Virus record (IMG/VR): IMGVR_UViG_3300028833_000001
Coordinates: 63,171 to 127,170 of that record
Length of the DNA stretch: 64,000 nt
Strand: one strand, 5' to 3'
Source: a virus
Lineage: Duplodnaviria; Heunggongvirae; Uroviricota; Caudoviricetes
Shown: positions 42,146-59,073 of the stretch, piece after piece
How positions within the stretch are numbered: position 1 is the first letter of the stretch
Layout: every line of letters begins with the position of its first letter
The notes under the pieces: generated by a model
Told to the model about the DNA's origin: nothing
What the model saw: the letters and a program-made list of their open reading frames with translations, nothing else
Database searches by the model: none
Position numbers and translations under genes: made by a program

Positions 42146-42520
42146 TTAATTTTTAATTTTGTAGATTCCTTCTGTGGCCTCCAAAGCCAGCCCCTTTTCG
42201 ATAAGTCCACGGTAGTCGAAATGATGGGCATTAAGCCAATCAACCATATGAATTGTGCAATTTTCTACATCTCCTTTTAAAATCCAATATTTAAAATTAT
42301 GAAAGTATGACTTCTCTTCATCCGTCATGCTTGACATTGGACGAAGGTATGGTTTAATATTGCCTTCTTGAAGAAATTCTGTTAGCCAATAGGCGTTGAG
42401 TGTTTCTACAGATTCAATTGTGTCTGTGTGGGTTGTATAAATTATTCTTCTAATCTTTACACCATAAGGTAATCTTGCACAGATATCCTGCAATAATATT
42501 TCTTTATACTGATTTGGCAT
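42146..42520 (-). CDS. family A protein
   Basis: DICARLPYGVK...KPYLRPMSSMTDEE...HHFDYRGLIEKGLALEA. Confidence 0.85.
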   Translation of the reverse strand: MPNQYKEILLQDICARLPYGVKIRRIIYTTHTDTIESVETLNAYWLTEFLQEGNIKPYLRPMSSMTDEEKSYFHNFKYWILKGDVENCTIHMVDWLNAHHFDYRGLIEKGLALEATEGIYKIKN

Positions 42521-42522
42521 AC

Positions 42523-42924
42523 TTAAACTAAGTTTCTTAAACAATAAATGATTCCGTTTTCAACAGCTTCATGGTACATTTCGCAAATACCACCGAAAAC
42601 AGAGCCGTCAGTTTGAGATATTGGATATTCCAGGCAATTTTCCCTTATAACAACTGGTGTCCAAGCATACATTGTTTTGTTGTCTTCGCCGTATTTGCAT
42701 ACATCAATAACAATCACAATATTATGTACTTCCCTAAGCCATTTAGTTGTCATTTGAAGAGTAGGGTACAAATATTTATTATCACCTAGCTCATAAACAC
42801 CTTGTTGAAACGGCAACATATAAACCTCATTGTCAGTGTTAATATATCCCTGGGTTATCTCCTTAAAACCCTTTTCCTTTAATAATTTTGCTGTCTCAAA
42901 AGATACGTAATCCTCTTTAATCAT
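42523..42924 (-). CDS. family B protein
   Basis: EDYVSFETAKLLKEKGF...PTLQMTTKWLRE...YCLRNLV. Confidence 0.85.
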   Translation of the reverse strand: MIKEDYVSFETAKLLKEKGFKEITQGYINTDNEVYMLPFQQGVYELGDNKYLYPTLQMTTKWLREVHNIVIVIDVCKYGEDNKTMYAWTPVVIRENCLEYPISQTDGSVFGGICEMYHEAVENGIIYCLRNLV

Positions 42925-42929
42925 AATTT

Positions 42930-43310
42930 TCAAATTAAATTTGTTCTATCATAATCAAAAATTTCAAGACAATACTTTATTGCTGCTTCACAGGCTTCCT
43001 CATAAGTATTGAAATATTGTGGATGTGAATCAATATTTTCAATCGTGGTTGGTGAATGTATAATTACATACCTGTAAATGTTTGGCATCGGGAAGTATCT
43101 AGGTTCAATATGAATGCTATAATTTACCCTCAACCACTTCATCGCCATTTGGAGAGTGGGCGCTGGATATTCTGAATCCCAAGATGGACCAGAAAATTCA
43201 CCATCCATATTATAATAATAATGTGGAGAATTTTTACAAACCACACTATTAAACCCTTTCTCTTTCAATAGCTTTGCTGTTTCAAAACTTACGTAATCCT
43301 CATTAATCAT
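42930..43310 (-). CDS. family B protein
   Basis: EDYVSFETAKLLKEKGF...APTLQMAMKWLR...YEEACEAAIKYCL. Confidence 0.85.
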   Translation of the reverse strand: MINEDYVSFETAKLLKEKGFNSVVCKNSPHYYYNMDGEFSGPSWDSEYPAPTLQMAMKWLRVNYSIHIEPRYFPMPNIYRYVIIHSPTTIENIDSHPQYFNTYEEACEAAIKYCLEIFDYDRTNLI

Positions 43311-43344
43311 ACTGCTTTTTTGCTTAAAAGTTGTTTACAAATTA

Positions 43345-43572
43345 TTAATCAGTGAGAACTATATTTCTCGATTCAATCTCTGCAATAGCTGCATCCCTGT
43401 CTATGCGCTCACATATGTGTGAAAGTTCCTCATTCATTCGGCGCATTTCTTCGTCGCTTACCGTGAAAACTTCACCGTTCGGTATGACGAAATCATCTAT
43501 TGAGCAGCCTTCCCATTCGTCAGCTTCTTTGTAAGACCCACAAACATTTTTTTGTACTATCTCTGTCATATC
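43345..43572 (-). CDS. small acidic protein
   Basis: start at MTEIVQK preferred. Confidence 0.5.
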   Translation of the reverse strand, partial: DMTEIVQKNVCGSYKEADEWEGCSIDDFVIPNGEVFTVSDEEMRRMNEELSHICERIDRDAAIAEIESRNIVLTD

Positions 43573-43591
43573 TTTTAATCTGTTTATATTA

Positions 43592-43969
43592 TTACACAAC
43601 CACGTCCATATCATATCCGCACAGCCGCAGCAGTTGCTGCATCTCGTGCACGAACTGTACTTTTGAAACTTCTACAAATCGTTTTTTCAATGAGCCAGCT
43701 GCGCCAGCTGTAATCATCCAATCTTTAAACTCTTTTACAAAAGTACAATTTATGTAAGGTTCGTTCAAACATAATGTCTTATATTTTTCATCTTCCATTA
43801 AAAACTTAAACCCATTCTTTTCAAGTATTTCAGCCGTAAGTTGTATTGGTTCGTAATAATCAAGAATATATTCTCCGCCGTTACGAAAATCTTTGACGTC
43901 AACTTGACATTCAATGTCGTTGTTAATATCAAACACCCAGTCACCAATCATAAGTTTCTTCATATTCAT
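43592..43969 (-). CDS. conserved phage protein (IGDWV...PIQLTAEILEKNGF...VHEMQQLL)
   Basis: motif pattern common in Bacteroidota phages. Confidence 0.65.
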   Translation of the reverse strand: MNMKKLMIGDWVFDINNDIECQVDVKDFRNGGEYILDYYEPIQLTAEILEKNGFKFLMEDEKYKTLCLNEPYINCTFVKEFKDWMITAGAAGSLKKRFVEVSKVQFVHEMQQLLRLCGYDMDVVV

Positions 43970-43971
43970 AT

Positions 43972-44179
43972 TTATTCGGCCTTAGTTTATACATTCCTTC
44001 AGGTGCTTCACGAGCAAGCCCTTTTTCAATTTGCGCCGTACATAGGCATTCGTGCAGTCGGTTTGTCAAAGCCTGCATACGCAGTCGTCTTTCGGGAATG
44101 TTTCAACAAACACATACATCCCGTATGGAATCCTCGCGCATAGGTCTGCGTATTTTATCTTTTCTTTTTCTTTATTCAT
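43972..44179 (-). pseudogene. degraded family A gene
   Basis: MNKEKEKIKYADLCARIPYG, TGA at 44066-44068, then IEKGLAREAPEGMY in another frame; the central anchor is missing. Confidence 0.8.
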
Positions 44180-44183
44180 ACAA

Positions 44184-44804
44184 TTAAAGTTTGAAACAGT
44201 TGCTTTCGTTTATCTTGCCGCTTATGACATCGTTCACAAGTTCTCTGTCAACAGTATCGTCACAGCCGTCACAGAAACTTTCCTTGCATTGCCTGCATCT
44301 CGGATGCACAACATTGTGCTGACGAATGAACGCCTTTGCTTCTTCAACGGTCATCGGAGTATGTGTTTCTTTATTCAAGGCAGCATACATTCCTGCTGGT
44401 GCTTCGAGTGCGAGACCCCTTTCAATTAAACCACGGTAATCAAACATTTTCTTATTAAGAAAATCAAATGACTTGTATGACATACAAGAATCATAATGAC
44501 CGTTAATATAGATGGTATCGAATGTTGCGTCATATTCCACTTCTTCTTCCTCCGTCATACTTGACATACGGCGCAAGTACGGTTTGACATTCTCAATCGG
44601 GTAGAACACATTGTTCACGAATCCCGAATGGAGCGGTACGTCCTCGTAGTAGTTGCTGATGACACCGTAGCAGTTGCCGACATATTTCAGCACGCCATTT
44701 TCGGTTTTACCGCCGCCCAAGCCGCTCACGCATTTGCATCTCACCTTATACGGCAACCTGCCGCAAAGGTCTTTCATTAAAAGGTCTCTATCTTCAGTCG
44801 TCAT
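44184..44804 (-). CDS. family A protein with fused C-terminal Cys domain
   Basis: A anchors, then an extension containing CRQCKESFCDGC after ALEAPAGMY. Confidence 0.85.
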   Translation of the reverse strand: MTTEDRDLLMKDLCGRLPYKVRCKCVSGLGGGKTENGVLKYVGNCYGVISNYYEDVPLHSGFVNNVFYPIENVKPYLRRMSSMTEEEEVEYDATFDTIYINGHYDSCMSYKSFDFLNKKMFDYRGLIERGLALEAPAGMYAALNKETHTPMTVEEAKAFIRQHNVVHPRCRQCKESFCDGCDDTVDRELVNDVISGKINESNCFKL

Positions 44805-44818
44805 ATCTTTTAATTTGT

Positions 44819-45019
44819 TTATATGTCTTTATTTACTTTTGGACAATATTCCAAATCTGTAAGCGGTATTCCGTGGCAACCGAATTCTGTTATCGAACCG
44901 CAATACATTGGAATATAATCATTTGGTGTCGGGTATGGATAAAAATGATTTCTACAATCTCTTTCAAATATACACTTATCGCAATTTACACATTGTGTTT
45001 TTATAAATTCATTCGTCAT
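44819..45019 (-). CDS. small Cys-rich protein
   Basis: CVNCDKC...C. Confidence 0.5.
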   Translation of the reverse strand: MTNEFIKTQCVNCDKCIFERDCRNHFYPYPTPNDYIPMYCGSITEFGCHGIPLTDLEYCPKVNKDI

Positions 45020-45130
45020 AATTTTAACAATTATATATTCCCTCTTTAGTATACGATTTGATTAGTTTGTATTCGTCTTCTTCGTTATAACATTTTGGTT
45101 TTATGCCACCGATTATTATTTATAAGTCAA

Positions 45131-45643
45131 TTAACTATCTGATTCTTTGATAAATTCAAAGAAATACGGAACACGCCACATGTACGAATTTGGATTTTCT
45201 TTTTCATAATTTTGTGACCATTTACGACATTTTTCTTCATTATTAATCAGTTTCCAACCATTTGGCAAAACTACTTTTCCGAAGCCTTCTGGCGTAGTCT
45301 CCCAATATCTAATCCAGTATGTCAGAAAATCATATAATTTAGAGTATAAGCTGACTTCATATTTTATAATTCCCAAAAATGCTTCGTCTCTGAACAATTT
45401 CAATTTCATATCAGTTGCATTTCTTATTGCTCCTGGGTCCGCATTTTCATCAGTATCATATTGCTTAAAATTACAAGAAGTTTCAAACTTATCACCAAAA
45501 ACGCAACAATCACACTTTAAACAATTCTTGTTATTATCAAGTGCACACTGTCCTCCTTCTCCACTAACCCAGTTCTCAAAATTGGTACACCTTCTTTTCA
45601 TTTCATTTGTTAACTCCAGCTTATTTGTCATATTTTTTTTCAA
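45131..45643 (-). CDS. hypothetical protein
   Basis: 170-aa ORF with a Cys-rich N-half. Confidence 0.55.
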   Translation of the reverse strand: MKKNMTNKLELTNEMKRRCTNFENWVSGEGGQCALDNNKNCLKCDCCVFGDKFETSCNFKQYDTDENADPGAIRNATDMKLKLFRDEAFLGIIKYEVSLYSKLYDFLTYWIRYWETTPEGFGKVVLPNGWKLINNEEKCRKWSQNYEKENPNSYMWRVPYFFEFIKESDS

Positions 45644-45647
45644 ATTT

Positions 45648-46016
45648 TTAACGATACATTCCTTCTGGCGCTTTGAGTGCCAATCCTTTATGGATTAGTC
45701 CTCTAACATCAAACCCTTTAGATAATAACCAATCATTAACCATTGTAGTTGCCGATTCATTATTTGCAAAACTACAATCTTGTGATTTAACTATCATCTT
45801 ATGATATTCTTTACTCTCTTTCTCCGTCATACTTGATAGAGGGCGGAGATAAGGTTTGTAATTGTAGTATTCAATATTATGCAGAAGCTCGTTCAGTATG
45901 TCTGTTGTCAAGAAACACTTATAGTCTGTGTCATCATCTGTACAATTAATGACAACATTATAAGCCAATCTTCCACAAAGGTCTTTCAACAATAAAATTT
46001 TCTCTTCTTGTGTCAT
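45648..46016 (-). CDS. family A protein
   Basis: DLCGRLAY...KPYLRPLSSMTEKE...GLALKAPEGMY. Confidence 0.85.
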   Translation of the reverse strand: MTQEEKILLLKDLCGRLAYNVVINCTDDDTDYKCFLTTDILNELLHNIEYYNYKPYLRPLSSMTEKESKEYHKMIVKSQDCSFANNESATTMVNDWLLSKGFDVRGLIHKGLALKAPEGMYR

Positions 46017-46225
46017 AATATTAAAAAATTTTGTTCTATCATTTGTAATGTATCAAACATATCAGAAGCAAGAATAATATAGTCAATATCATCACATTGT
46101 GTGGTATCAGAAGACTTGGCGATTTGATTCTCGTAATATTCCATTTTCTCACTCAAATATCTTCCGATGAGAACTTTCCTTTTATGAATACTGTCCTCTG
46201 TTTGAATTTCTTGTAATGTTGTCAT
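46013..46225 (-). CDS. cargo gene X, copy 1
   Basis: 70 aa; differs from 57193..57405 by one residue. Confidence 0.8.
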   Translation of the reverse strand: MTTLQEIQTEDSIHKRKVLIGRYLSEKMEYYENQIAKSSDTTQCDDIDYIILASDMFDTLQMIEQNFLIL

Positions 46226-46227
46226 AA

Positions 46228-46641
46228 CTATTCAGTTTTAGTGTTATACATACCTTCTGGGGCTTCGAGAGCTAGACCTTTTTCGATTAACCCATTATAG
46301 TCTATATGATGTTCGTTTAACCATTCAAGTGGTTCTGAAATGTTTCCAACTTTCGGTAGTGTATACCGTGAATGCGGGTGACACCAGTTGTATATGTTTG
46401 TGAACTCCTCCCATTCTCTTTCCGTCATTTTTTCTATCGGACGCAGATATGGCTTGACAAAACCAATTTCAATAGGCGCAATACCTTTTACAGTAACAGC
46501 ATATTCCCAATTGCCTTCATCTGTAACGATTAAATCAATTCCTTTAGCAGTATAGACGTTTTTATTCAATGCAATTTTAACGCCATACATCAATCTTGCA
46601 CAAAGGTCTTTCAATAATAAACTTTTTTCTTCTCGCGTCAT
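46228..46641 (-). CDS. family A protein
   Basis: DLCARLMYGVK...KPYLRPIEKMTERE...GLALEAPEGMYNTKTE. Confidence 0.85.
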   Translation of the reverse strand: MTREEKSLLLKDLCARLMYGVKIALNKNVYTAKGIDLIVTDEGNWEYAVTVKGIAPIEIGFVKPYLRPIEKMTEREWEEFTNIYNWCHPHSRYTLPKVGNISEPLEWLNEHHIDYNGLIEKGLALEAPEGMYNTKTE

Positions 46642-46654
46642 AATACTTATTTTA

Positions 46655-47071
46655 TTATTGATACATTTCTACTTTGGCTTCGAGTGCCAACCCCATTCCA
46701 ATCAGACCACGGTAGTCGAAGTGGTGGGCGTTCAACCATTCAACCTGCCTGCTGTCGCACTTAAACACGTTGGCTGAATGTTTCAACCGTTCAGTCGGCT
46801 CATAATTTTTCCAATTCGGGCATGGTATGTCATGTATACCAGAAGCAATCATGCACTCGTTCAGTTCTTCTATTGACATTGATTCCATAGGACGCAGGTA
46901 TGGACGCACCTCGTCAACATAGTAGGCATCGTTTATCAGCCACTTGCTGTCGTTGATTCTTGCCGAAAAGAGATATTCATCATCGTCATCGGGCAGCAAC
47001 TTGATTACGACTTCGTGTGCGAGCCGTCCGAACAAATCCTCGGTCAATATGTTTCTTTCTTCGTCTGTCAT
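46655..47071 (-). CDS. family A protein (visibly GC-richer)
   Basis: RPYLRPMESMS...HHFDYRGLIGMGLALEAKV. Confidence 0.85.
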   Translation of the reverse strand: MTDEERNILTEDLFGRLAHEVVIKLLPDDDDEYLFSARINDSKWLINDAYYVDEVRPYLRPMESMSIEELNECMIASGIHDIPCPNWKNYEPTERLKHSANVFKCDSRQVEWLNAHHFDYRGLIGMGLALEAKVEMYQ

Positions 47072-47397
47072 TGCTTTTCCTTTTCTAATTTGAATAACAC
47101 GTTACTTTTTTTAATGTCGTATGTGTGACCATCGTGGATTATTCTGTAATAAGAACCGTAGAAATTAATCCAATATACATTAAGTGTAACTTCCGTTCCT
47201 GCCGAAATCTTTTTAGGATTCTTTCTGAAATAGTGAATGTCCTCCTCGTTATAGCAATCCTTCTTTATAACGGCTTTCACGTTATCGAATTGGTACATTT
47301 TTCCGATATGGCCGAATGTACCGTCATTGTCAAGGTTATGGCATACAACAGCCAATTTCGTATAGTTACCGTCAGTTATGACACCAATTCTTTTCAT
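47068..47397 (-). CDS. hypothetical protein
   Basis: 109-aa ORF, ATGA-coupled to an A gene. Confidence 0.6.
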   Translation of the reverse strand: MKRIGVITDGNYTKLAVVCHNLDNDGTFGHIGKMYQFDNVKAVIKKDCYNEEDIHYFRKNPKKISAGTEVTLNVYWINFYGSYYRIIHDGHTYDIKKSNVLFKLEKEKQ

Positions 47398-47433
47398 AGT
47401 ATGATGAATTTGCTGTTTTGTACTTTATCTCTA

Positions 47434-47646
47434 TCAGAAATTCAATTCAATGTCAGTTCCGCCGTAGGTTTCATAAGCCTCGTAACGCTCGTTGCCCGTC
47501 CAATCTTGGGTGTCCCAACATTCGAGGTCATCGTGTTCGTCAATCACTTTCTTGATTTCGTCTGAAACACGCTCCTTGGTGATTTCGTTTTCGGGAATGT
47601 CAAGGTCAACTGTCAGAAATAGTTTTTTAATTATTGTCACTTCCAT
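47434..47646 (-). CDS. small acidic protein
   Basis: start at MEVTII preferred. Confidence 0.55.
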   Translation of the reverse strand: MEVTIIKKLFLTVDLDIPENEITKERVSDEIKKVIDEHDDLECWDTQDWTGNERYEAYETYGGTDIELNF

Positions 47647-48112
47647 AATCTTTTGTGTTTTTGTTGTACATATCTTTTGGCGCTTCAAGGGCCAAACCAA
47701 TTTGAATCAACCCTCGATAGTCAAAATGATGGGCATTAAGCCAGTCGAATTTGTTATATGCTAACAACAGTGGGGCGTATTGGTCTAATTTGGATTTATG
47801 CTGTCTGTTTACCTCGTTCAAAGCAATGTCGATGTCCTTTCGCGCTGCTTTCTCGAAATCCTTTCTCTCTTCCTCAGTCATGCTTGATAGCTGACGGAGA
47901 TACGGTTTAATCTCATTAATGGAGCAAAAATTAAAATTTCCATAATCATCAATAAAATCAACGGTGTAATATATTTTATGTTGATTAAACCTGTCAACAT
48001 CTTGTTCTATGTTCAATAAAGTTTTAACATTGCCATCTACGTACAGTTTGACACCATATAATTGTCTTGCACAAAGGTCTTTTACCAGTAGTTCTTTTTC
48101 TTCTTGCGTCAT
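47627..48112 (-). CDS. family A protein
   Basis: DLCARQLYGVK...KPYLRQLSSMTEEE...GLALEAPKDMY. Confidence 0.85.
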   Translation of the reverse strand: MTQEEKELLVKDLCARQLYGVKLYVDGNVKTLLNIEQDVDRFNQHKIYYTVDFIDDYGNFNFCSINEIKPYLRQLSSMTEEERKDFEKAARKDIDIALNEVNRQHKSKLDQYAPLLLAYNKFDWLNAHHFDYRGLIQIGLALEAPKDMYNKNTKDYGSDNN

Positions 48113-48137
48113 AATACTTACTTTATTGTTGATATAT

Positions 48138-48200
48138 TCATACTTTGGCTTCGAGTGCCAAGCCCATTCCGAATGGTTTTGTCCAATTTCCGTCTTTTGT
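48138..48200 (-). pseudogene. orphan family A 3' end
   Basis: 48141-48170 matches 46670-46699 at 29/30 nt (GMGLALEAKV). Confidence 0.75.
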
Positions 48201-48214
48201 CAATTGTTGTTGTT

Positions 48215-49057
48215 TTATTCTTCGCCTTTCCAACCGAGAATGATTTTCACAACCTCCCAAAGTTCATCTGGCATTGTGTATGAATAGTGGTCTTTGTCTT
48301 TTACAGAACCGAATCTCTTGTCAAGGTCATTATTGCTGTAATTGTTTTCGTCTATGCCTTCGTATAAGGCGTATTCCACCATATATCTTGGAGCAGTGCG
48401 ATATGCTTTTAGAATAGATATTTTGCTTGTGAGTGCAACAAAATCGTCAAGTTTCTCTTGCAGTGAGTTGAACTTTTCGGTTACATCGTATGGGTCGTAC
48501 TTCATGCCAAAATACTCCTCAACCCTACTGAAAAGGTAGCCTGGTGCAATGGAATCATAGCGTGAGAAGTCGTCATTTTTGTATTCGTACACTGTTTTTT
48601 TCTCCTTGAGTGCCCACTCATTGCCACAGTCTTTGCATTTGTTCACTGGGAACGTATCCAATTCTCCGTCAATCTTTGAACTGCCGTATGAATTGTGTAT
48701 GTAACTTCCGCCGAACAAAATGTGCGATGCATATGAGTATGAACTGTGAGAACCGCCGCCGTGAACCTCTCCCTTTACTCTCTTGATGTGGTTGATGACA
48801 TTTTGACTGCCGCACTTCGGGCAAATGCTGTTCTCTTTGTCAATCATCTCGTTTTTCTCATCAACATACTCTTTTGCAATGTCGTATTGCTTGCTGCTGT
48901 ATTCTTCGAGATAATTTTCAATTTGTCTCTTGCGGGATTGATACGCCTCTTTGTCACGTCTCGCTTGTTCTAGGCGTTCCGCTTCGGCTTTTTCTCTTTC
49001 TGCTTTTTTGCGTGCAAGCCTTGCCTGCTTTCTAGCTTTGAATCCAAATAAGCCCAT
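48215..49057 (-). CDS. zinc-ribbon protein with coiled-coil N-terminus
   Basis: CPKCGS...CKDCG. Confidence 0.65.
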   Translation of the reverse strand: MGLFGFKARKQARLARKKAEREKAEAERLEQARRDKEAYQSRKRQIENYLEEYSSKQYDIAKEYVDEKNEMIDKENSICPKCGSQNVINHIKRVKGEVHGGGSHSSYSYASHILFGGSYIHNSYGSSKIDGELDTFPVNKCKDCGNEWALKEKKTVYEYKNDDFSRYDSIAPGYLFSRVEEYFGMKYDPYDVTEKFNSLQEKLDDFVALTSKISILKAYRTAPRYMVEYALYEGIDENNYSNNDLDKRFGSVKDKDHYSYTMPDELWEVVKIILGWKGEE

Positions 49058-49089
49058 TTCTTCTTAAATTGCTTTGTTCTTTATTTTAT

Positions 49090-49117
49090 ATAATATTTTT
49101 TTAATTGTTTTTGTCAA
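49090..49117 (-). promoter_or_regulatory. sigma70-like promoter
   Basis: TTGACA-16 nt-TATTAT. Confidence 0.55.
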
Positions 49118-49673
49118 CTATTCTTATTTGTCTCCTACCACCATAAGGGAGCTGTACAAGATACGGACGCATCCATGGGTTTGAACTTCTTCCGTTCGAG
49201 TCAATTGTACCCCAGAAATTATTACCGTCATTACTCTCACGGATGAATCGGATTCGGTTTGTTTTCATTCTAGAAATACACTCACGGAAATGATTCTCAT
49301 CAAACTCCACGTCATCATAAGACGACGGGATATATTCCACAAAATCATCTTCTTTTATTTCGTACAAACCAAATATCTCACACATTTTTCTTTTGAGATT
49401 CTGGTGTAGAAGGCACTTCGTGTCACCGTACGAAATCGTTAATTTAACAAGTTCGATTTTGTCACCATATTTTCCTGTGGTGTATTCGAGGCCATCTATA
49501 CTGTTCTCAGTGAACTGGTGTTGCAACATCCACAACACAAGCGCATCTTTCAACTCATAATATTGGTTTCTAGTGATGATTTTGCTCACATCGAACTTTT
49601 TCGTCACCTTGTTGGTGTATTCGATATCTTCGAGCAATTGTCTGAAATCTACCTTTACTGCTATATAATCCAT
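49101..49673 (-). CDS. hypothetical protein
   Basis: true start probably at MDYIAV, after the duplicated promoter element. Confidence 0.6.
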   Translation of the reverse strand: MDYIAVKVDFRQLLEDIEYTNKVTKKFDVSKIITRNQYYELKDALVLWMLQHQFTENSIDGLEYTTGKYGDKIELVKLTISYGDTKCLLHQNLKRKMCEIFGLYEIKEDDFVEYIPSSYDDVEFDENHFRECISRMKTNRIRFIRESNDGNNFWGTIDSNGRSSNPWMRPYLVQLPYGGRRQIRIVDKNN

Positions 49674-49745
49674 TGCTTTGTTATTTATTTTATGTGAACC
49701 TATATTACTATTTTTTTTTCGTTTTTCCAAAAACAGTTTCATTAT
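49670..49745 (-). promoter_or_regulatory. duplicated promoter and leader element, copy 1
   Basis: TTGGAA-17-TAATAT...aacaaagcaATG; near-identical to 51212..51287. Confidence 0.7.
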
Positions 49746-49746
49746 G

Positions 49747-50133
49747 TCAGATAAGGTTTTCAAGACAATATTTTATAGCAGCTTCACAGGCTTCTTCATA
49801 AGTGTTATATGCTGTTTCAGATTCATATTCGGAAACTGAATTGGGGTATTTTATTATTTCAAGCCACCACTTATTACCCACTTTTGGAAAGTCATGATAT
49901 GGATATATTTCTAAAGAATATATTTCCCTTAGCCACTTCATGGCCATTTGAAGAGTTGGAGTGGCATATTCTAAATCATCAAGTGCTGAATTTTTATAAT
50001 AAAGCTGTCCGTCTACCTCCAATCCAGGTGTACCATAATCAATATTGTTGTAAAAACAACTACATTCTTCATCAAATCCTTTTTCTTTCAAGAGCTTTGC
50101 TGTTTCAAAACTAACGTAATCTTCTTTAATCAT
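49747..50133 (-). CDS. family B protein
   Basis: all three B anchors present. Confidence 0.85.
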   Translation of the reverse strand: MIKEDYVSFETAKLLKEKGFDEECSCFYNNIDYGTPGLEVDGQLYYKNSALDDLEYATPTLQMAMKWLREIYSLEIYPYHDFPKVGNKWWLEIIKYPNSVSEYESETAYNTYEEACEAAIKYCLENLI

Positions 50134-50138
50134 AAAAC

Positions 50139-50555
50139 TTAAACTAAATTTTCCAGACACCACTTGATACCAGCTTCACAAGCCCCTTCAAATGTAGCAA
50201 AGTATCTTTCGTCATCAGACATTCGACTGCTGTCGTATATTCTATACACTGTGAAATACCAGACAGGTGTTTGATAATATTTTGTTCCACGTTCATCTTC
50301 ATAGTAATCGGTTTCCGACTGAACAACGACTTCAAATGACAACTCTCTCAGCCACTTCATGGCCATCTGAAGAGTTGGGGCAGGATATGCCTTTGGATGT
50401 GGTCTTGATGTTGAAACATCATTTATTTTCCCTGTTGGTGAATATTCCATCCACACCTTTGTTTCTGAGCCAAATGAACCATCGCCATATACATCGAAAC
50501 CCTTTTCTTTCAAGAGTTTTGCAGTTTCAAAGCTGACGTAATCTTCTTCAATCAT
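50139..50555 (-). CDS. family B protein
   Basis: all three B anchors present. Confidence 0.85.
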   Translation of the reverse strand: MIEEDYVSFETAKLLKEKGFDVYGDGSFGSETKVWMEYSPTGKINDVSTSRPHPKAYPAPTLQMAMKWLRELSFEVVVQSETDYYEDERGTKYYQTPVWYFTVYRIYDSSRMSDDERYFATFEGACEAGIKWCLENLV

Positions 50556-50745
50556 AACTTCATTTACTTTTTTTTAATTCAAAACACAATTGGAATTTCA
50601 ACCAAAGAAAAGTTATCCCAAACACAAACGGCCAATCTTTTCCGAAGTTTGGGGAGTTGTAGGTACCTAATGTTATTGTTGGGATAACAAAGAAAGTCAT
50701 TGAAGATTCCCATCTAAAAATTATTTTCATATTCTTATATATATC

Positions 50746-50946
50746 TCATTTGCTTTTAAAGTTTTCAATAAGTTTTCTTATTTGCCATTCCCCGCATTTG
50801 GCTATTTCTTCCGCAATTTTCTTATCATAAAACCTATAAACATTAGATACATAAACTGGGTAATGGGAATTGACTTCACGTTTTATTACAAGTCTTAATA
50901 AATCATCCATTTCATTCTTATAAAGTTCACAATCTTCTTTATACAT
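50746..50946 (-). CDS. hypothetical protein
   Basis: 66-aa ORF. Confidence 0.5.
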   Translation of the reverse strand: MYKEDCELYKNEMDDLLRLVIKREVNSHYPVYVSNVYRFYDKKIAEEIAKCGEWQIRKLIENFKSK

Positions 50947-50963
50947 AATGCAAATTATTTTTC

Positions 50964-51215
50964 TTAAAGTCCAAAATCGTGCTCATATCCTTGATGGATA
51001 TCAATGAATCTGTAAATCTCTACAATGCTATTATATGCATCGCTTCCACCTTTTGCGTATCTGTAAAGCACATATGCGCACCCTTCGAATTCATCGTACA
51101 TTATATAGAATTCAGGGTAATCTGGATTTACCCACAAAAATCCGCCTTTCGGTTTGCTTGGGTCTCCTGTTTTATGCCATCCCCATTCCAGTAAATCAAT
51201 TTTTTCTAATTTCAT
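50964..51215 (-). CDS. hypothetical protein
   Basis: true start probably at MKLEKID, after the duplicated promoter element. Confidence 0.55.
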   Translation of the reverse strand: MKLEKIDLLEWGWHKTGDPSKPKGGFLWVNPDYPEFYIMYDEFEGCAYVLYRYAKGGSDAYNSIVEIYRFIDIHQGYEHDFGL

Positions 51216-51287
51216 TGCTTTGTTGTTTATTTTGCATAAACCTATATTACTATTTTTTTTCCGTTTTTCCAAAAACGGTTTCATAAT
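51212..51287 (-). promoter_or_regulatory. duplicated promoter and leader element, copy 2, with inverted repeat
   Basis: CCGTTTTT-GG-AAAAACGG overlapping TTGGAA-17-TAATAT. Confidence 0.7.
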
Positions 51288-51384
51288 GTTTCAACGTGTA
51301 ACACTTCTTGCATTGTTCTTTTGGTTTTAAACATCTAATGTTGCACCATTGTTTTGTTATTTCATATTCTGCTTTTGTCATAGG

Positions 51385-51852
51385 TCAAATAAGGTGTTCC
51401 AGACAATACTTTATCGCGGCTTCGCAGGCTTCCTCAGACGTGCTGAAACCTTTGGGCGTTAAAGTCTCGTCTTCAACAAGCGCACATATTTCCTTGATGC
51501 AGGATTCGCCCGTTTCTGTGTTCGATATGCAAGCATAATAATCGGGATGAAAATCTTCGTGGTTTTCAGAATAGGTAATGTTGACCGCAATATGGATGTT
51601 ATGCACCTCCCTCAGCCACTTAATGGCCATTTGAAGGGTTGGACGCAGATATTCATCATAATCCAAATCAGAGTTTGTCAAATCATCGTATACAATACCA
51701 ATTTCTTGACCACTTTGGGTTTTAATACCATATCCAGATTCATAACATCTTTCGGAATAAAAGCCTCCATGACATCCAACCACATCCGAATCAAAACCCT
51801 TTTCTTTCAAAAGCTTTGCTGTTTCAAAACTAGCATAATCCTCTGTAATCAT
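51385..51852 (-). CDS. family B protein
   Basis: all three B anchors present. Confidence 0.85.
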   Translation of the reverse strand: MITEDYASFETAKLLKEKGFDSDVVGCHGGFYSERCYESGYGIKTQSGQEIGIVYDDLTNSDLDYDEYLRPTLQMAIKWLREVHNIHIAVNITYSENHEDFHPDYYACISNTETGESCIKEICALVEDETLTPKGFSTSEEACEAAIKYCLEHLI

Positions 51853-51854
51853 AA

Positions 51855-52232
51855 TCAAATCAAGTTTTTCAAAACATATGATAATGCTTCTTCAACGGCT
51901 TGTTCATAAGAATCAAAGTAAATTGTCTTGCCTTCTTCTTGAGAAAAGAATCTACCTTTTTCATGCCCAACCCATCTGAATTGAATATTCTTTCCTGTTG
52001 TGTAGGTAAGAATATCAATATAGATATTATGCTCTTTTCTCAACCACTTCATTGCCATCTGCATGGTCGGGGCCGATATAAACGGGCAATCATTCTTGTC
52101 ATTCCAATTGATATCCACCATGAACGACATTAGTCCATTGCCGCAGTCATATAATCCGCTCGTTGCTTCGGAAAATCCTTTCGCCTTCAACAACTTTGCA
52201 GTCTCAAAGCTGACGTAATCTTCTTTTATCAT
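51855..52232 (-). CDS. family B protein
   Basis: all three B anchors present. Confidence 0.85.
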   Translation of the reverse strand: MIKEDYVSFETAKLLKAKGFSEATSGLYDCGNGLMSFMVDINWNDKNDCPFISAPTMQMAMKWLRKEHNIYIDILTYTTGKNIQFRWVGHEKGRFFSQEEGKTIYFDSYEQAVEEALSYVLKNLI

Positions 52233-52243: not shown

Positions 52244-52570
52244 TTATTCGGTTTTGGTATTGTACATTTTTGAAGATTTTTCCATATGTTGTTTAACGAG
52301 GTCATTTAAGAATTTCTCACTCGCAGATTTTACGCTATAAGCATAATAACCATTAAAAAAAACATGATATTTTCCGTCAAATGTTTGTATGACATGTGTC
52401 CATGCAAAAGTAATTGATGAACCGCCAATACTACTAAAGCCACGAGCCGTACTATCCCATGCTTGTTCAAAAACAAACACTTGTGATATTTGGTCATTAT
52501 TATAATTACTTAATATGTAACCATTTACTTTGGCAGTTGTAATAGTTAAATCACTTAATATATTTTCCAT
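52244..52570 (-). CDS. hypothetical protein carrying a family A C-terminal tail
   Basis: unrelated body ending MYNTKTE. Confidence 0.65.
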   Translation of the reverse strand: MENILSDLTITTAKVNGYILSNYNNDQISQVFVFEQAWDSTARGFSSIGGSSITFAWTHVIQTFDGKYHVFFNGYYAYSVKSASEKFLNDLVKQHMEKSSKMYNTKTE

Positions 52571-52591: not shown

Positions 52592-53047
52592 TTAATACAT
52601 TCCTTGTGGAGCTTCCAAGGCTAGACCTTTTGGAATTAAGCCACGGTAATCGAAGTGGTGAGAGTTAAGATAGTCAAGTACCCAATAATTTATTGTACTC
52701 TCACTGTATTTTTCATTAGTGACACAATATTCACTTATAATTTCAATTCCATAATGGGAATAAGAATCATAATCGTTATAAGGCTGTTCAAAATCACATC
52801 CATCACACAATTCTTCTAACTCTTCCTCCGTCATGCTTGACATTGGACGGAGGTATGGTTTTATCTTTTCAAGATTATAGCAATTGTGTTCGGCAATTAC
52901 AATCATCAACGAAAAGTCGACACCAACTAATTTCTGGACATCCAAACCCCTTTCTCTTAGAAAATCGCTATCAATGTTTATTTTAACTCCATACGGCAAA
53001 TATCCACAGAGTGCATTTACAACCAATTCTTTTTCTTCTTGCGTCAT
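52592..53047 (-). CDS. family A protein
   Basis: all three A anchors present. Confidence 0.85.
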   Translation of the reverse strand: MTQEEKELVVNALCGYLPYGVKINIDSDFLRERGLDVQKLVGVDFSLMIVIAEHNCYNLEKIKPYLRPMSSMTEEELEELCDGCDFEQPYNDYDSYSHYGIEIISEYCVTNEKYSESTINYWVLDYLNSHHFDYRGLIPKGLALEAPQGMY

Positions 53048-53522: not shown

Positions 53523-53561
53523 TCAAAATTTTAACAATAATTCTTTTTCTTCTTGTGCCAT
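53523..53561 (-). pseudogene. orphan family A 5' end
   Basis: MAQEEKELLLKF then stop. Confidence 0.7.
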
Positions 53562-53563
53562 AA

Positions 53564-53938
53564 TTAAATCAAATTTTCTAAGCAATATTTTATGGCAGCT
53601 TCGCAGGCTTCTTTATATGTCTTGTAAATAATATCGGATTCATGTTTGGTTAAACCACATCCTTTGGAATGTTGTTCAATCCTGTACCACCAATCATTAT
53701 TTTCTTGAATTGCATCGTGAAACGGATAGATTTCAAGGTGAAAAATATCTCTAAGCCATTTCATAGCCATTTGAAGAGTTGGACATTCTATTCTGTCTTT
53801 CTTATCAAAATCATGATAGTGTTGATAACACCAACGTATTGAACTGTCTGGTACATAATAGCAAGAGGTGTCACCCTCAAACCCCTTCTCTTTCAGGAGT
53901 TTCGCTGTTTCAAATGAAACATAATCTTCTGTAATCAT
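53564..53938 (-). CDS. family B protein
   Basis: all three B anchors present. Confidence 0.85.
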   Translation of the reverse strand: MITEDYVSFETAKLLKEKGFEGDTSCYYVPDSSIRWCYQHYHDFDKKDRIECPTLQMAMKWLRDIFHLEIYPFHDAIQENNDWWYRIEQHSKGCGLTKHESDIIYKTYKEACEAAIKYCLENLI

Positions 53939-53953
53939 CACCATTTTTCATTT

Positions 53954-54475
53954 TTATTTATACATCCCTTCTGGAGCTTCTAATGCAAGTCCTTTTTTAA
54001 TTAACCCACGGAAGTCAAAATGATTTTTAAAGAGGAATTCTTCCAAAAGTTCGAAGTCTTCGAAATCGTATTCTGATTTATCTTCATTGTCGTATAGGCA
54101 TTTTTTAATCTCAATGCCACGATGCGAATAATTGTCATAGTCATCAGATGGATGGCCAAAATACAGAATACCTCTCAACTCGTTTTTCTCTTCCTCCGTC
54201 ATGCTTGATAGTGGACGGAGAAATGGAATATCTTCACCAAGTACAAAAGGTCTTGTTGCAGTTGACATTCCGCACCCATCATACTCGTCATAACCAATCC
54301 AACCATCAATATCTGTTTTAATTAAATGTCCACTCCTACTATATGAAAGAGAACATAACTTAATAATTTTCCATTTATGATAATCATACTGGTTTTCTTT
54401 ATAATTAACCACAACCCCATACGGCAATCTCGCGCATAGGTCTCTTACCAATAGTTCTTTTTCTTCCTGTGTCAT
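53954..54475 (-). CDS. family A protein
   Basis: all three A anchors present. Confidence 0.85.
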   Translation of the reverse strand: MTQEEKELLVRDLCARLPYGVVVNYKENQYDYHKWKIIKLCSLSYSRSGHLIKTDIDGWIGYDEYDGCGMSTATRPFVLGEDIPFLRPLSSMTEEEKNELRGILYFGHPSDDYDNYSHRGIEIKKCLYDNEDKSEYDFEDFELLEEFLFKNHFDFRGLIKKGLALEAPEGMYK

Positions 54476-54835: not shown

Positions 54836-54846
54836 AATTTTTTATT

Positions 54847-55272
54847 TTAATACATTCCTTCTGGTGCTTCAATAGCAAGCCCCATTATAATCAAGTCACG
54901 GTAATCAAGATGATTAGAATTGAACAAATCAAAGGTTTCAATAGTATAACTACTAATATACATTTTATGGTATTTAATCCTATCATCCAATTCAGTTTCG
55001 GAAAGTGCATTCATCGCGCAAACCGTTTTTTTTTCTTCCATTGTCATGCTTGACATCTGGCGAAGATACGGTTTCACCTCGTTTATTCTAAACAAGCTGA
55101 ATGAATCGTCTGGATAATAAAATTCTACATACCCATTGTTTCGTAAACCCTTTATTTGTCCAACCACTTCAACAGGCATATTTGTTTCTTCATCATAACA
55201 CGTGACAGACCCAACTATACCATAAGGTATGCCACTTAATAAGGTATTATATATAAGTTCTCTATCTGTCAT
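54847..55272 (-). CDS. family A protein
   Basis: IPYG...KPYLRQMSSMTMEE...LDYRDLIIMGLAIEAPEGMY. Confidence 0.85.
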   Translation of the reverse strand: MTDRELIYNTLLSGIPYGIVGSVTCYDEETNMPVEVVGQIKGLRNNGYVEFYYPDDSFSLFRINEVKPYLRQMSSMTMEEKKTVCAMNALSETELDDRIKYHKMYISSYTIETFDLFNSNHLDYRDLIIMGLAIEAPEGMY

Positions 55273-55477
55273 AACTATTATGATTATTTGCTTGTTTGAC
55301 AATTTCTATTACTTCATTCGGTCTTATACATTCTCCGTCATCTAACCATATATGCCAATAAGTTGAGAACCAATACGGGTCATCCTCACATAGTTCCACT
55401 TTTGTCACTACATTGTAACGGTCTTCTTTGTCAGTGGCAATACGCCACTTTATTTTGTCTCCGACTTTAGGTATCAT
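55262..55477 (-). CDS. small hypothetical protein
   Basis: PKVGDKIKW, possibly an SH3-like beta fold. Confidence 0.5.
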   Translation of the reverse strand: MIPKVGDKIKWRIATDKEDRYNVVTKVELCEDDPYWFSTYWHIWLDDGECIRPNEVIEIVKQANNHNSYDR

Positions 55478-55506: not shown

Positions 55507-55779
55507 CTATTCCTCCATTGCATTCTTGAAAAAGTGTATAAGCTCACCCGTATTGTAATCATGTAATGAATTTGTCGGAGGCATAAAATCCTCCACGTGT
55601 TTCTCTAAGAACTTGCATGCCTTGTCAATCATCGTTTTGTCAGCCCAATTTGCACCTTCGATGAAACAATCACATTGTGCTTTCACAAATGTTGGCGATG
55701 AACCCATGGCATATCTACTATATGCAGCATGTTTTATTTCTTCTTCTCTTTTCATATCACTCACAATTTGTTTCCTCAA
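55507..55779 (-). CDS. family C protein
   Basis: FIEGANWADKTMIDKACKFL...FKNAMEE. Confidence 0.75.
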   Translation of the reverse strand: MRKQIVSDMKREEEIKHAAYSRYAMGSSPTFVKAQCDCFIEGANWADKTMIDKACKFLEKHVEDFMPPTNSLHDYNTGELIHFFKNAMEE

Positions 55780-56531: not shown

Positions 56532-56747
56532 TTATTCCAAGTCGATTCCTTCTATTTTATTACAACACATTAGTATTCCATTGCAAATTTCTTCAAATAA
56601 GGCGTTTTTGTATATTTCAAGTTCCCTTTGTTTTTCTTTCCATTCGGCCATTGCCATCGCCGACAGGTATAAGTGTTCTTCATTGTAACCTGTTTCTGGT
56701 CTATAAAAGCTTTCAGAAATTTCCTTCGCTCTTTCTTCTGTTGTCAT
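56532..56747 (-). CDS. family C/D small protein
   Basis: MTTEERAKE...MAEWKEK. Confidence 0.6.
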   Translation of the reverse strand: MTTEERAKEISESFYRPETGYNEEHLYLSAMAMAEWKEKQRELEIYKNALFEEICNGILMCCNKIEGIDLE

Positions 56748-56749
56748 AA

Positions 56750-57196
56750 CTATTCAGTTTTAGTGCTGTACATTCCTTCGGGTGCTTCAAGAGCCAATCC
56801 CATAGGAATGAGCCCGCGATAGTCGAAATGATGGGCGTTGAGCCAGTCAGTGTTTACACATGCTTCGTCAGCGCTACACGCGGCTTTTATTGTGACAGGT
56901 TCATAGTTAGCACCAGCCTCGTAGCATTCACTGGACTCATACTCGGAATTCTTGAAATAATCCTCAGCCTCTTTCTCCGTCATGCTTGACATCTGACGGA
57001 GATATGGTTTGATGTCCCATACCGTGTAAACCTTTGTGCCATTGATGTACCCGTCCTTGTCGATACTTTCCAATGTCCCAACTGCACACATTTGCTGGTC
57101 CCGTTCGTGGTCCCAATATTCCCTGCAATATTTTACCCCGTAAGGCAGTGTCGCGCATAGGTATTTTAGCAATAAATCTTTTTCTTCTTGTGTCAT
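56750..57196 (-). CDS. family A protein
   Basis: all three A anchors; ends GMYSTKTE. Confidence 0.85.
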   Translation of the reverse strand: MTQEEKDLLLKYLCATLPYGVKYCREYWDHERDQQMCAVGTLESIDKDGYINGTKVYTVWDIKPYLRQMSSMTEKEAEDYFKNSEYESSECYEAGANYEPVTIKAACSADEACVNTDWLNAHHFDYRGLIPMGLALEAPEGMYSTKTE

Positions 57197-57405
57197 AATA
57201 TTAAAAAATTTTGTTCTATCATTTGTAATGTACAAAACATATCAGAAGCAAGAATAATATAGTCAATATCATCACATTGTGTGGTATCAGAGGACTTGGC
57301 GATTTGATTCTCGTAATATTCCATTTTCTCACTCAAATATCTTCCGATGAGAACTTTCCTTTTATGAATACTGTCCTCTGTTTGAATTTCTTGTAGCGTT
57401 GTCAT
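57193..57405 (-). CDS. cargo gene X, copy 2
   Basis: near-identical to 46013..46225. Confidence 0.8.
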   Translation of the reverse strand: MTTLQEIQTEDSIHKRKVLIGRYLSEKMEYYENQIAKSSDTTQCDDIDYIILASDMFCTLQMIEQNFLIL

Positions 57406-57407
57406 GA

Positions 57408-57854
57408 CTATTCGGTTTTAGTGTTATAAATTCCTTCTGGAGCCTCCAATGCCAATTCTTTTTCTATTAAGCTACGGTAGTCAAAATAATGGACGTTAAG
57501 CCAATCGTATTTAGCATTATCACCAGACATTGCCGCCTTGAAATAGTCGCCACTTTTATTTAGTTCTTCTATTTCCGCATTTTGGTAATACTGAAACCAT
57601 TCATTGTGTTCCTCCTCCGTCATACTCGACATCGGACGGAGGTAAGGCACAAATTCAGTTATAGCGGTTAAACACCAACTGTCATTCTTGCATTGGATGA
57701 TGAAAATTTCATTATCGACATGTTCTTTACCAACAATAACACCTATTCCACTGTCGTAAGACAATACACCTTCCTCTTTTATTTTAACCTTAACTCCATA
57801 CGGAAGCCTCGCACAGAGGTCCACCAATAACAGTTCTTTTTCTTCTTTATTCAT
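57408..57854 (-). CDS. family A protein
   Basis: all three A anchors; ends GIYNTKTE. Confidence 0.85.
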   Translation of the reverse strand: MNKEEKELLLVDLCARLPYGVKVKIKEEGVLSYDSGIGVIVGKEHVDNEIFIIQCKNDSWCLTAITEFVPYLRPMSSMTEEEHNEWFQYYQNAEIEELNKSGDYFKAAMSGDNAKYDWLNVHYFDYRSLIEKELALEAPEGIYNTKTE

Positions 57855-58038
57855 ACCTATATGGTTTTATTGTATAATATTCATCCGCATAATCATACGG
57901 GTATCTTTTCATTTCTTCGCATTTTTTATGCAACGCAAATTTTGCTGCATTGTGTGATGGAAACGATTCAACAAACACCCAGTTGCAATACATGGCCCAA
58001 GGTTTCGGTTTGTACAGTTTCTCTTTTTTATTACTCAT
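57847..58038 (-). CDS. hypothetical protein
   Basis: 63-aa coupled ORF. Confidence 0.55.
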   Translation of the reverse strand: MSNKKEKLYKPKPWAMYCNWVFVESFPSHNAAKFALHKKCEEMKRYPYDYADEYYTIKPYRYE

Positions 58039-58238
58039 TCCTCGCCTCCTTCCTTTTGTTCGAAAATTATATGTTTAGCGGCTTCTGTGACAAGTTTCTT
58101 TGCACGAATCAAAAGTCTTCTTACATTTTCATCGCCCATGGCACCCTTCCTGTACGGTTCAACTGCTCCTCTTGTGTCAGATAAAGAGGTCTTGTAGGGG
58201 ATTCCATATCGACAGGTAACTTCTTTAGTCTTGGTCAT
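58035..58238 (-). CDS. hypothetical protein ending EGGEE
   Basis: ATGA-coupled on both sides. Confidence 0.55.
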   Translation of the reverse strand: MTKTKEVTCRYGIPYKTSLSDTRGAVEPYRKGAMGDENVRRLLIRAKKLVTEAAKHIIFEQKEGGEE

Positions 58239-58609
58239 TTGTCATAGTCGTAATTAGATGTTTTACCATTAAATTCAAATGAAATAATTTCATGTTCTTT
58301 CGGGTCAATTTGTTTTTCTTTCTTAACTGATTTCCAGGAAGACCCCTTATCCCTGTATACCCCATCGGTTTCATTGATAAAAGGAACCATAGTATCGCAT
58401 ATATGGTCCATAACATCTCCCAAAGTCCAAGTTTCACCAAAACTACGATATTTGCGATATATCATTTTAACTATATCGTAAATTTTCTCCATAGTCCATT
58501 TTTCGGAGTCGAAATAAAGATGACTCTTGCTGGTGTTCCATTCCTCGCGGTTAGACAAGCAAAGACCGTTGTCACCGCTGTAACTGTACATATAGCTAAT
58601 AAGTTTCAT
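58235..58609 (-). CDS. hypothetical protein
   Basis: 124-aa ORF. Confidence 0.55.
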   Translation of the reverse strand: MKLISYMYSYSGDNGLCLSNREEWNTSKSHLYFDSEKWTMEKIYDIVKMIYRKYRSFGETWTLGDVMDHICDTMVPFINETDGVYRDKGSSWKSVKKEKQIDPKEHEIISFEFNGKTSNYDYDK

Positions 58610-58629
58610 AAATTAATTTTTATAATATT

Positions 58630-59073
58630 TCATTTAATTTCATACAATCCTTCGGGTGCTTCTAGAGCAAGACCTATCTCAATCATTGTTTTACCATTGC
58701 CATCAGTTCTCCAATCAAAATGTTTTGAATCTAACCATTCTACATATCGATTCATATACAATATAAAATTATCACTCTTTGCGTCCTTCCGATACCATCT
58801 TGACTCTTGTTTTTCTTCTTTAGTCATCGAGGCCATCGGTCGGAGGTATGGCTTGATATTTTCAATCGGATAGAACACGTTGTTCACGAATCCTGAATGA
58901 AGTGGCACTCCTTCATAGTAGTTACTGATGACACCATGGCAGTTGCCAACATATTTTAGCACGCCATTTTTTGTTTCACCACCTCCCAAACCGCTCACAC
59001 ATTTGCATCTCACCTTATATGGCAACATTGCACAAAGGACTTTAAGCAATAATTCTTTTTCTTCGTTTTTCAT
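58630..59073 (-). CDS. family A protein
   Basis: shares its first variable segment with 44184..44804. Confidence 0.85.
   Translation of the reverse strand: MKNEEKELLLKVLCAMLPYKVRCKCVSGLGGGETKNGVLKYVGNCHGVISNYYEGVPLHSGFVNNVFYPIENIKPYLRPMASMTKEEKQESRWYRKDAKSDNFILYMNRYVEWLDSKHFDWRTDGNGKTMIEIGLALEAPEGLYEIK

Follow-up and report, generated by a model that had tools for sequence, protein, structure and literature searches.

How did one phage genome come to carry an array of small genes that resemble one another in three constant segments and scarcely at all in the two segments between them? The array lies at positions 42146 to 59073, all on the minus strand, of a 64,000-nucleotide (nt) stretch of DNA (the window), itself taken from an IMG/VR virus record of 361,445 bp, rated complete by CheckV; the public runs that contain this genome are sheep gut metagenomes. 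A reading of the sequence alone had proposed that the genes of one family in the array, family A, share three anchors, termed N, middle (M) and C, and that crossovers inside the anchors reassort the variable segments V1 and V2. We sought to establish whether V1 and V2 are exchanged as units, where the exchanges are joined, and how often they take place. The answer that we consider likely is that family A is an old family of discrete cassettes that have been re-paired by recombination located in the anchors. The proposed reassortment holds as an evolutionary process that acts mostly between genomes; its extension to an active generator of diversity within the array is not supported.

The open reading frame (ORF) list and an alignment place 12 intact family A copies on the minus strand within the array, and a profile search of the whole genome gives 15 copies plus one fragment, which bears out the earlier count of 12 intact copies and two more on the plus arm. 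The fifteenth copy lies outside the window (G000 144970-145347). All 15 are complete ORFs with a start codon and all three anchors, and three broken remnants also occur in the window. The window copies are listed here, with L and P numbers denoting related loci and database proteins.

42146..42544, minus strand: A01, family A gene, likely start ATG at 42520
44184..44804, minus strand: A02, V1 type as in A12, unique V2, Cys-rich C-terminal extension of about 65 amino acids (aa)
45648..46016, minus strand: A03, N anchor inside the 300-nt duplicate D7
46228..46641, minus strand: A04, modelled; its ortholog in L022 retains both cassettes
46655..47071, minus strand: A05, its ortholog in L022 retains both cassettes
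47627..48112, minus strand: A06, family A gene
52592..53047, minus strand: A07, V2 type common to A07 and A08
53954..54475, minus strand: A08, longest V1 and V2 of all copies
54847..55302, minus strand: A09, likely start 55272; V2 and C anchor found again on an A02-type V1 in P0017
56750..57235, minus strand: A10, likely start 57196; modelled, V2 found again on another V1 type in P0069
57408..57854, minus strand: A11, V1 in common with L060 (89% nt identity), whose V2 is unrelated
58630..59073, minus strand: A12, V1 type as in A02, unrelated V2
11067..11513, plus strand: A13, diverged copy on the plus arm
15316..15759, plus strand: A14, diverged copy on the plus arm

The encoded proteins are mostly acidic (isoelectric point 4.4-5.9, with A12 the exception at 8.3), and no signal peptide was visible when the sequences were inspected by eye. 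Logan contigs of the probable source run, assembled independently, show zero differences from the window over 42969-46032, 46222-51117 and 57366-59064, and the genes given as covered by them are A01-A03, A04-A06 and A11-A12. Because these independent contigs are identical, the mosaic genes described below are not chimeras of one assembly.

The division into anchors and variable segments was reproduced in a consensus of 126 sequences, in which 6 columns never vary and about 34 others reach at least 90% conservation, all of them within the three anchors that the sequence-only reading had named. Positions at this level are L8, L9, L13, C14, R16, L17, P18 and Y19 in the N anchor; K63, P64, Y65, L66, R67, P68, S70, S71, M72, T73 and E76 in the M anchor; and D106, L108, N109, H111, H112, F113, D114, Y115, R116 and G117, followed by L118, I119, G122, L123, A124, E126, A127, P128, M131 and Y132, in the C anchor. 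The segments between the anchors have no consensus. Their sizes are 25-69 aa for V1 and 15-60 aa for V2, and we refer to them as cassettes. Within the window, protein identity is 50-92% for anchors and 4-32% for pairs of V1 or V2, with the exception of two pairs that had already been singled out. A02 and A12 share V1 at 90% aa identity and have V2 segments at background (23%). A07 and A08 share V2 at 40%, including the motif DYDxYSHxGIEI, and their V1 segments are 13-15% identical. Segment identities thus agree with the earlier description of both pairs as sharing one cassette and differing in the other.

Whether such mosaics characterize the family as a whole was examined in 308 distinct members drawn from the window, 79 related loci and 120 database proteins. 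Each member was cut into N, V1, M, V2 and C by a profile hidden Markov model, and all V1 pairs and all V2 pairs were scored separately, with cassettes counted as shared at a normalised Smith-Waterman score of at least 0.5. Since the cassette types cannot be aligned with one another, cluster contingency and mapping of DNA blocks were used in place of classical V1 and V2 trees. V1 is shared by 531 pairs, of which 14 also have a common V2 and about 500 have V2 at background; among the 140 pairs that share V2, V1 is at background in 125. More than one V2 type occurs on 42 of the 44 multi-member V1 clusters, and more than one V1 type on 57 of the 61 multi-member V2 clusters. Because the database proteins had been ranked by a profile made from the window copies, a second, exhaustive test was made with the A02/A12 V1 alone, which was searched in 5.8 billion proteins. 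It was found in 26 proteins, 25 of which have a V2, and these fall into 23 V2 types. Several of these V2 segments recur on other V1 types, including those of A09, A11 and the A10 type: P0017 joins the V2 and C anchor of A09 to an A02-type V1, the V2 of P0013, on an A02/A12-type V1, resembles that of A11, and P0081 (A02/A12-type V1) and P0016 (A10-type V1) have a common V2. The V2 of A10 itself is found on yet another V1 in P0069. Incongruence between V1 and V2 groupings, which the sequence-only reading had expected, was therefore seen in both tests, the two groupings being almost independent across the family.

The same pattern is visible in DNA, where recurring cassettes are 71-100% identical on unrelated partners. 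L050 and L012 are 100% identical in N, 98% in V1, 93% in M, 42% in V2 and 95% in C, so that V2 alone differs between otherwise similar genes; L064 and L018 are 100% identical in V2 and 44% in V1; and a gene of L022 matches A02 of the window at 94% in N, 94% in V1, 71% in M, 47% in V2 and 69% in C. Where V1 is shared, 18 of 20 shared blocks end inside the M anchor or at most 2 nt after it, and where V2 is shared, 16 of 17 begin inside the M anchor or no more than 3 nt before it, at the end of V1. Pooled over these discordant pairs, the shared block stops inside the M anchor, which is 42 nt long, or at most 2-3 nt away in 34 of 37 cases, as had been predicted for breakpoints in the PYLRPM anchor. 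A scan made without pre-selection of pairs placed 105 of 118 internal block ends in anchors or at most 6 nt away and 13 inside a cassette. Cassettes are therefore shared whole or not at all, and the use of all four cassette borders implies that either cassette can be exchanged while its flanks stay as they were.

Shared cassettes mostly differ by 5-25% in DNA and so do not represent one molecule that was misjoined. They are under purifying selection: the ratio of nonsynonymous to synonymous divergence (dN/dS) has a median of 0.15 in V1 and 0.17 in V2, with values above 1 in none of the pairs. For the V1 segments of A02 and A12, dN is 0.047 and dS is 1.02, and this high dS indicates an old event. 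An invariant array, which had been named beforehand as evidence against shuffling, was not seen; the arrays of related phages vary. A04 and A05 are present whole in L022, at 90-98% nt identity in most segments, while their neighbours differ, and the arrays are in flux at roughly 5-10% divergence.

Events that did not yield an intact family A gene, or that moved more than a cassette, have also left traces in the window.

45961..46260, minus strand: D7 copy 1, comprising the A03 N anchor, a gene of 70 aa at 46013-46225 and the 3'-terminal 33 nt of A04
57141..57440, minus strand: D7 copy 2, comprising the A10 N anchor, a gene of 70 aa at 57193-57405 and the 3'-terminal 33 nt of A11
48113..48170, minus strand: orphan C-anchor remnant upstream of A06, a copy of the A05/A04 junction (duplicate D14, 82% identity)
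53528..53563, minus strand: orphan N-anchor remnant of 12 codons followed by two stops, ahead of an unrelated 71-aa gene (D8)
43986..44179, minus strand: collapsed pseudo-copy with an N-anchor ORF (44066-44179) and a C-anchor remnant (43986-44030) in different frames (D5)

The two D7 copies are 300 nt long and 93% identical, and each spans from within the N anchor of a family A gene to within the C anchor of its neighbour; D14 is of a similar kind. The two ends of A02 correspond to two L022 genes that are 3 kb apart. As a separate observation on A02, its C-terminal extension (44184-44381, minus strand) contains two CxxC pairs and is zinc-ribbon-like, with a weak match to IBR_1 below the cut-off; in L022, DNA 91% identical to the extension lies in a different gene, 3 kb from the A02-type V1. 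An unrelated 108-aa protein (52244-52570, minus strand) ends in MYNTKTE, the same tail as A04, A10 and A11, as if the 3' end of its gene had been captured at a C anchor.

AlphaFold2 models were obtained for A10 (predicted local distance difference test, pLDDT, 86.7; predicted TM score 0.78) and A04 (pLDDT 76.6). Both give the same order of elements, helix, beta, helix, loop and helix: an N-anchor helix is followed by V1 beta hairpins that are closed by the PYLR strand of the M anchor, then by a helix that starts from the SSMTEEE capping box, the V2 loop or hairpin, and the C-anchor helix with an extended tail. The expectation that V1 would be a surface insert on a constant fold was not borne out, as V1 makes up most of the beta subdomain in the models. 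A homodimer was predicted with a score of 0.70, against 0.25 for the best control, with three runs agreeing in at least 70% of contacts and a partner pLDDT of at least 82; in a benchmark, this mark was reached by 20 of 30 proteins solved as same-chain pairs and by 1 of 23 solved as single chains. The predicted interface consists of the N helix (residues 7-18), a V1 strand (33-37) and the C helix (100-108 and 115-116), and the conserved C14 of both chains is in contact at the predicted two-fold axis. The models suggest that the anchors form the core and, probably, a symmetric homodimer interface.

No solved relative of the whole fold was found in the PDB by Foldseek or by the wide VIA-align search. 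Compared with Sm, Tudor or SH3-like small beta-barrels over the N helix and the beta part, the models gave weak likenesses, the best for A04 being FlgD (Z 5.5, 54 residues, root-mean-square deviation (rmsd) 2.1) and the best for A10, the better model, being SAWADEE (Z 2.9, 54 residues, rmsd 2.4), with Hfq, Tudor and CarD rows at Z 2-4. Fold searches of AFDB clusters and BFVD returned only uncharacterised relatives, and the ESM Atlas returned only unnamed viral clusters.

The tempo of exchange was assessed from the frequency of sharing. Within a locus, 1 of 565 pairs shares V1 and 1 of 565 shares V2 (0.18% each), and between loci the rates are 0.25% and 0.30%; cassette sharing is therefore no commoner within a genome than between genomes. 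These rates imply that the sample contains an effective number of about 400 types of V1 and 330 of V2. Where anchor sites are synonymous, the same codon is used in 47% of cases, and codon usage would lead one to expect 41%; these sites are thus near saturation, and the anchors have not been homogenised. The shuffling looks evolutionary, slow and mostly between genomes, and does not look programmed. A gene of the RecA/UvsX recombinase family lies outside the window (G000 C1:263766-263972) in a 413-aa open frame, with a Pfam RecA match of 31.1 bits against a cut-off of 27.

These observations bear on three other accounts of the array. That family A diverged by descent only, with fast-evolving V1 and V2 and with mosaics produced by rate variation or assembly chimeras, is scarcely credible. 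The anchors do form the structural core in the models, and most of the proteins do come from short metagenome contigs. Rate variation cannot explain the pattern, however, because both kinds of cassette recur on unrelated partners, at the high DNA identities and low dN/dS (about 0.15) given above; shared cassettes usually carry 5-25% DNA differences, and two independent assemblies agree for A02 and A12. The near-independence of V1 and V2 groupings, both in the 308 members and in the exhaustive V1 search, contradicts descent alone. The possibility raised by the sequence-only reading that the anchors are just the core of an old diverged family is thus right as to the conserved core and wrong as to the congruence of the groupings. 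Very unlikely, too, is an active, high-frequency generator of diversity within one phage population, with programmed or frequent gene conversion as in antigenic-variation loci. The single V1 type in two paralogs, the D7 duplicate with its anchor ends and the orphan anchors would suit such a generator, as would the many short-sided joints between paralogs obtained when public contigs were aligned to the region. Against it stand the age of the A02/A12 event, the rate of sharing within genomes, the lack of homogenisation in the anchors and the absence of any difference from source-run contigs over pieces of 1.6-4.9 kb. All 15 copies are full ORFs and not silent cassettes, which does not fit a locus of the pilE/pilS or vls type, with its one expressed gene and silent partial cassettes, and no match to the reverse transcriptase family RVT_1 was found in the 361-kb genome, although control genomes were matched. 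A diversity-generating retroelement is excluded by the lack of a reverse transcriptase; nor was there a pair of template and variable repeats differing mainly at adenines, since A02 and A12 hold the sole V-region DNA repeat of the array (D9, 78% identity) and both are coding copies, with dS of about 1. The contig joints were unusable as evidence of recombination within the population, having sides of 20-39 nt that a warning of the tool attributed to other organisms or repeats.

The third account concerns the recombination substrate. Illegitimate or microhomology joining might occur anywhere in the gene, with the anchors acting as a filter of selection and not as the substrate of recombination. 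Between the paralogs of this phage, anchor DNA is only 62-71% identical, and the longest exact in-register runs have a median of 8-9 nt and a maximum of 23; the synonymous sites of the anchors show no homogenisation at the DNA level; and the collapsed and orphan remnants indicate that non-productive events occur as well. We nevertheless consider this account unlikely. Many shared blocks stop part-way through the anchor and in frame (M+8, M+20 and M+22 of 42 nt), as a crossover in shared sequence gives, the anchors of alleles in related phages reach 90-100% nt identity, enough for homologous exchange, and the phage has a RecA-type recombinase.

Several points weigh against the explanation that we prefer, re-pairing of old cassettes by recombination in the anchors. 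Paralog anchors are poor substrates for classical homologous recombination. The clustering of junctions may partly reflect selection for foldable chimeras, and the scan of block ends is not fully independent, as anchor similarity is common to all pairs. The ranking of database proteins inflated the two largest V1 clusters. As to structure, V2 was modelled at low confidence (pLDDT 57-63 in A10) and the dimer is a prediction only; as to role, Pfam, fold searches, fused forms and gene neighbours gave no functional clue.

The data above show the architecture of the family, the reassortment, the positions of the junctions and the purifying selection, and from them we infer homology-guided crossover as the mechanism. 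Family A proteins are small, and in each of them three constant segments flank a pair of exchangeable cassettes. In the models the core and the dimer interface are supplied by the N helix, by the PYLR strand and its capping-box helix, and by the C helix with its tail; V1 is a beta-hairpin subdomain closed by constant strands, and V2 connects the last two helices as a loop or hairpin. For each cassette there are hundreds of discrete types, each maintained by purifying selection, and the types are re-paired by rare recombination with junctions in the constant segments. Constant segments may be favoured because short homology remains there among paralogs and alleles and because an in-frame join there could yield a foldable protein. 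The RecA/UvsX-type recombinase of the phage could carry out the exchange, the same junctions also mobilise whole neighbouring genes, and the 15 copies sample the combinations without redundancy.

The family is very large, and nearly all that is known of it so far comes from the sequences of phages and metagenomes. A word-indexed search gave at least 8,000 scored candidates, all with E of 0.001 or lower, and when 1.84 billion representatives at 50% identity were searched exhaustively with a profile, 8,656 matched at E of 0.001 or lower, 4,086 at 1e-10 and 996 at 1e-30. In IMG/VR, 338 stretches encode a relative, many of them on contigs of 300-413 kb, and L022 has 24 copies in one 20-kb locus. 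Eight of 10 scanned window copies match phrog_10841 (PHROGs v4, without annotation) with E from 1.7e-12 to 3.4e-4, the best match spanning profile positions 6-157 of 163; the two without a match at E 0.01 are A09 and A12. In the copies scanned against Pfam there was no family above the cut-off, only weak chance matches such as IBR_1 on the Cys-rich tail of A02. The GenBank phage collection gave no match by megablast of the whole array or tblastn of A07, a search of solved-structure sequences with the family profile gave nothing below E 0.09, and literature searches found no description of the family, its cassette structure or its reassortment. The window has no match to a sigma-54-type promoter pattern.

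Longer, fused forms of the family A domain number 29, with the domain at either end and joined to otherwise unknown regions or to named domains, and tandem double-domain forms are found in P0001-P0004 and P0133. The named partners, in database proteins, are as follows.

P0147, P0150, P0151 and P0155: class II aldolase-like, PF00596
P0160: WDGH, PF25311
P0042 and P0139: DUF6794, PF20594

None of the 29 fused forms provided a usable functional lead. The nearest neighbours of family A in the 79 related loci are mostly unknown small genes and scattered nucleic-acid enzymes, and the only recurrent one is phrog_12005 (11 of 145 neighbours), which is family B of the window.

As to function, the architecture, the selection on discrete cassette types and the accessory-gene setting lead us to suggest, tentatively, that family A proteins may be dimeric, two-site specificity modules, either binders or adaptors, aimed at variable targets of the host, its defences or rival phages. 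A more speculative and rather doubtful extension is that they constitute a natural combinatorial binder scaffold, with a constant dimerising core and two independently exchangeable specificity modules, of which jumbo phages carry 10-25 as a repertoire against variable host defence or surface-independent targets. Since the predicted interface is made of constant anchors, paralogs in one cell might also form heterodimers. If true, the repertoire would be a virus-side, recombination-based counterpart of immune-type repertoires.

The closest known mechanism appears, by analogy, to be the motif-guided shuffling of T-even gp38. In the gp38 tail-fibre adhesins of T2/T6-type phages, glycine-rich motifs (GRM) separate hypervariable segments (HVS), exchanges take place within or near the conserved motifs, and these motifs form the structural core (Trojet et al. 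2011, PMC3157838; Tetart et al. 1996 and 1998, as cited there). The likeness, which extends to mechanism only, lies in the alternation of conserved motifs with variable segments and in exchange junctions within the conserved motifs. Whereas gp38 is encoded once and serves in the virion as an adhesin with four short loops, family A is present in 15 copies in the genome and has a predicted dimer, looks cytoplasmic and acidic and is probably not in the virion, and has large, discrete cassettes of conserved types between anchors that are not glycine-rich. Kinship with gp38 was not detected: no Pfam adhesin matched at E of 1 or lower, and there was no gp38 chain among the fold-search rows.

Hyperplastic regions of T4-type phages, as cited in PMC3157838, are shuffled by way of promoter/stem-loop cassettes (PeSL; Arbiol et al. 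2010, PMC2839356). In so far as that citation describes them, they resemble the present locus in that small accessory genes stand in arrays and modules are shuffled by way of short conserved sequences located where genes meet, and the D7 and D14 duplicates, which move a gene or a gene junction through family A gene ends, resemble shuffling by PeSL. PeSL as described there are regulatory cassettes, whereas the conserved elements of family A are coding anchors and shuffling also takes place inside the gene.

Polymorphic toxin/immunity loci (CDI, Rhs) have a C-terminal module that can be swapped and that begins at a conserved motif. Family A is similar in that conserved sequence bounds the recombining modules and orphan fragments are left as footprints; it differs in having two cassettes and three anchors, in giving no match to a toxin or immunity domain, and in being carried by a lytic-type jumbo phage.

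Module exchange through conserved motifs in phage adhesins, and through gene borders in T4-type phages, is already known. Here the exchange affects a huge uncharacterised family of small, non-structural-looking proteins and is unusually clean, with two cassettes and three anchors, almost free assortment, and each type conserved by selection. For the study of protein modularity, family A therefore offers an experiment that nature has already set up, and for engineering it is a candidate scaffold. In each jumbo phage, 10-25 genes would be likely specificity factors, and their targets can now be searched for. In families of this kind, "variable" regions can be old, discrete alleles and not fast-evolving loops, which affects alignment, clustering and annotation.

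Other genes of the window deserve brief mention. Interleaved with family A are the seven copies of family B (phrog_12005), which has three conserved segments around two variable ones.

42523-42933, minus strand: family B copy
42930-43310, minus strand: family B copy
49747-50163, minus strand: family B copy
50139-50555, minus strand: family B copy
51385-51858, minus strand: family B copy
51855-52232, minus strand: family B copy
53564-53944, minus strand: family B copy

A cassette test of family B by regular expression found no pair sharing a segment and caught only 11 genes, too small a set. A third small paralog family, with a motif like GAKWADKTMIEKACKWLE, gave no PHROG or Pfam match in the copies scanned.

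59222-59530, minus strand: third-family copy
55507-55779, minus strand: third-family copy
13729-14127, plus strand: third-family copy
15749-16135, plus strand: third-family copy
5788-6084, plus strand: third-family copy

Just upstream of the array, a 374-aa protein (40667-41791, minus strand) has a CxxxCxxC motif typical of radical SAM and no PHROG match at E of 1e-5 or lower. About 4 kb upstream of the array and on the same strand, seven large genes (21302-37817, minus strand) match tail-fibre, tail and virion-protein PHROGs. Lastly, a 77-nt repeat at 49671-49747 and 51213-51289 (90% identical) gives the otherwise different genes 49101-49763 and 50964-51284 the same N-terminus of about 25 residues, a shared gene-start module.

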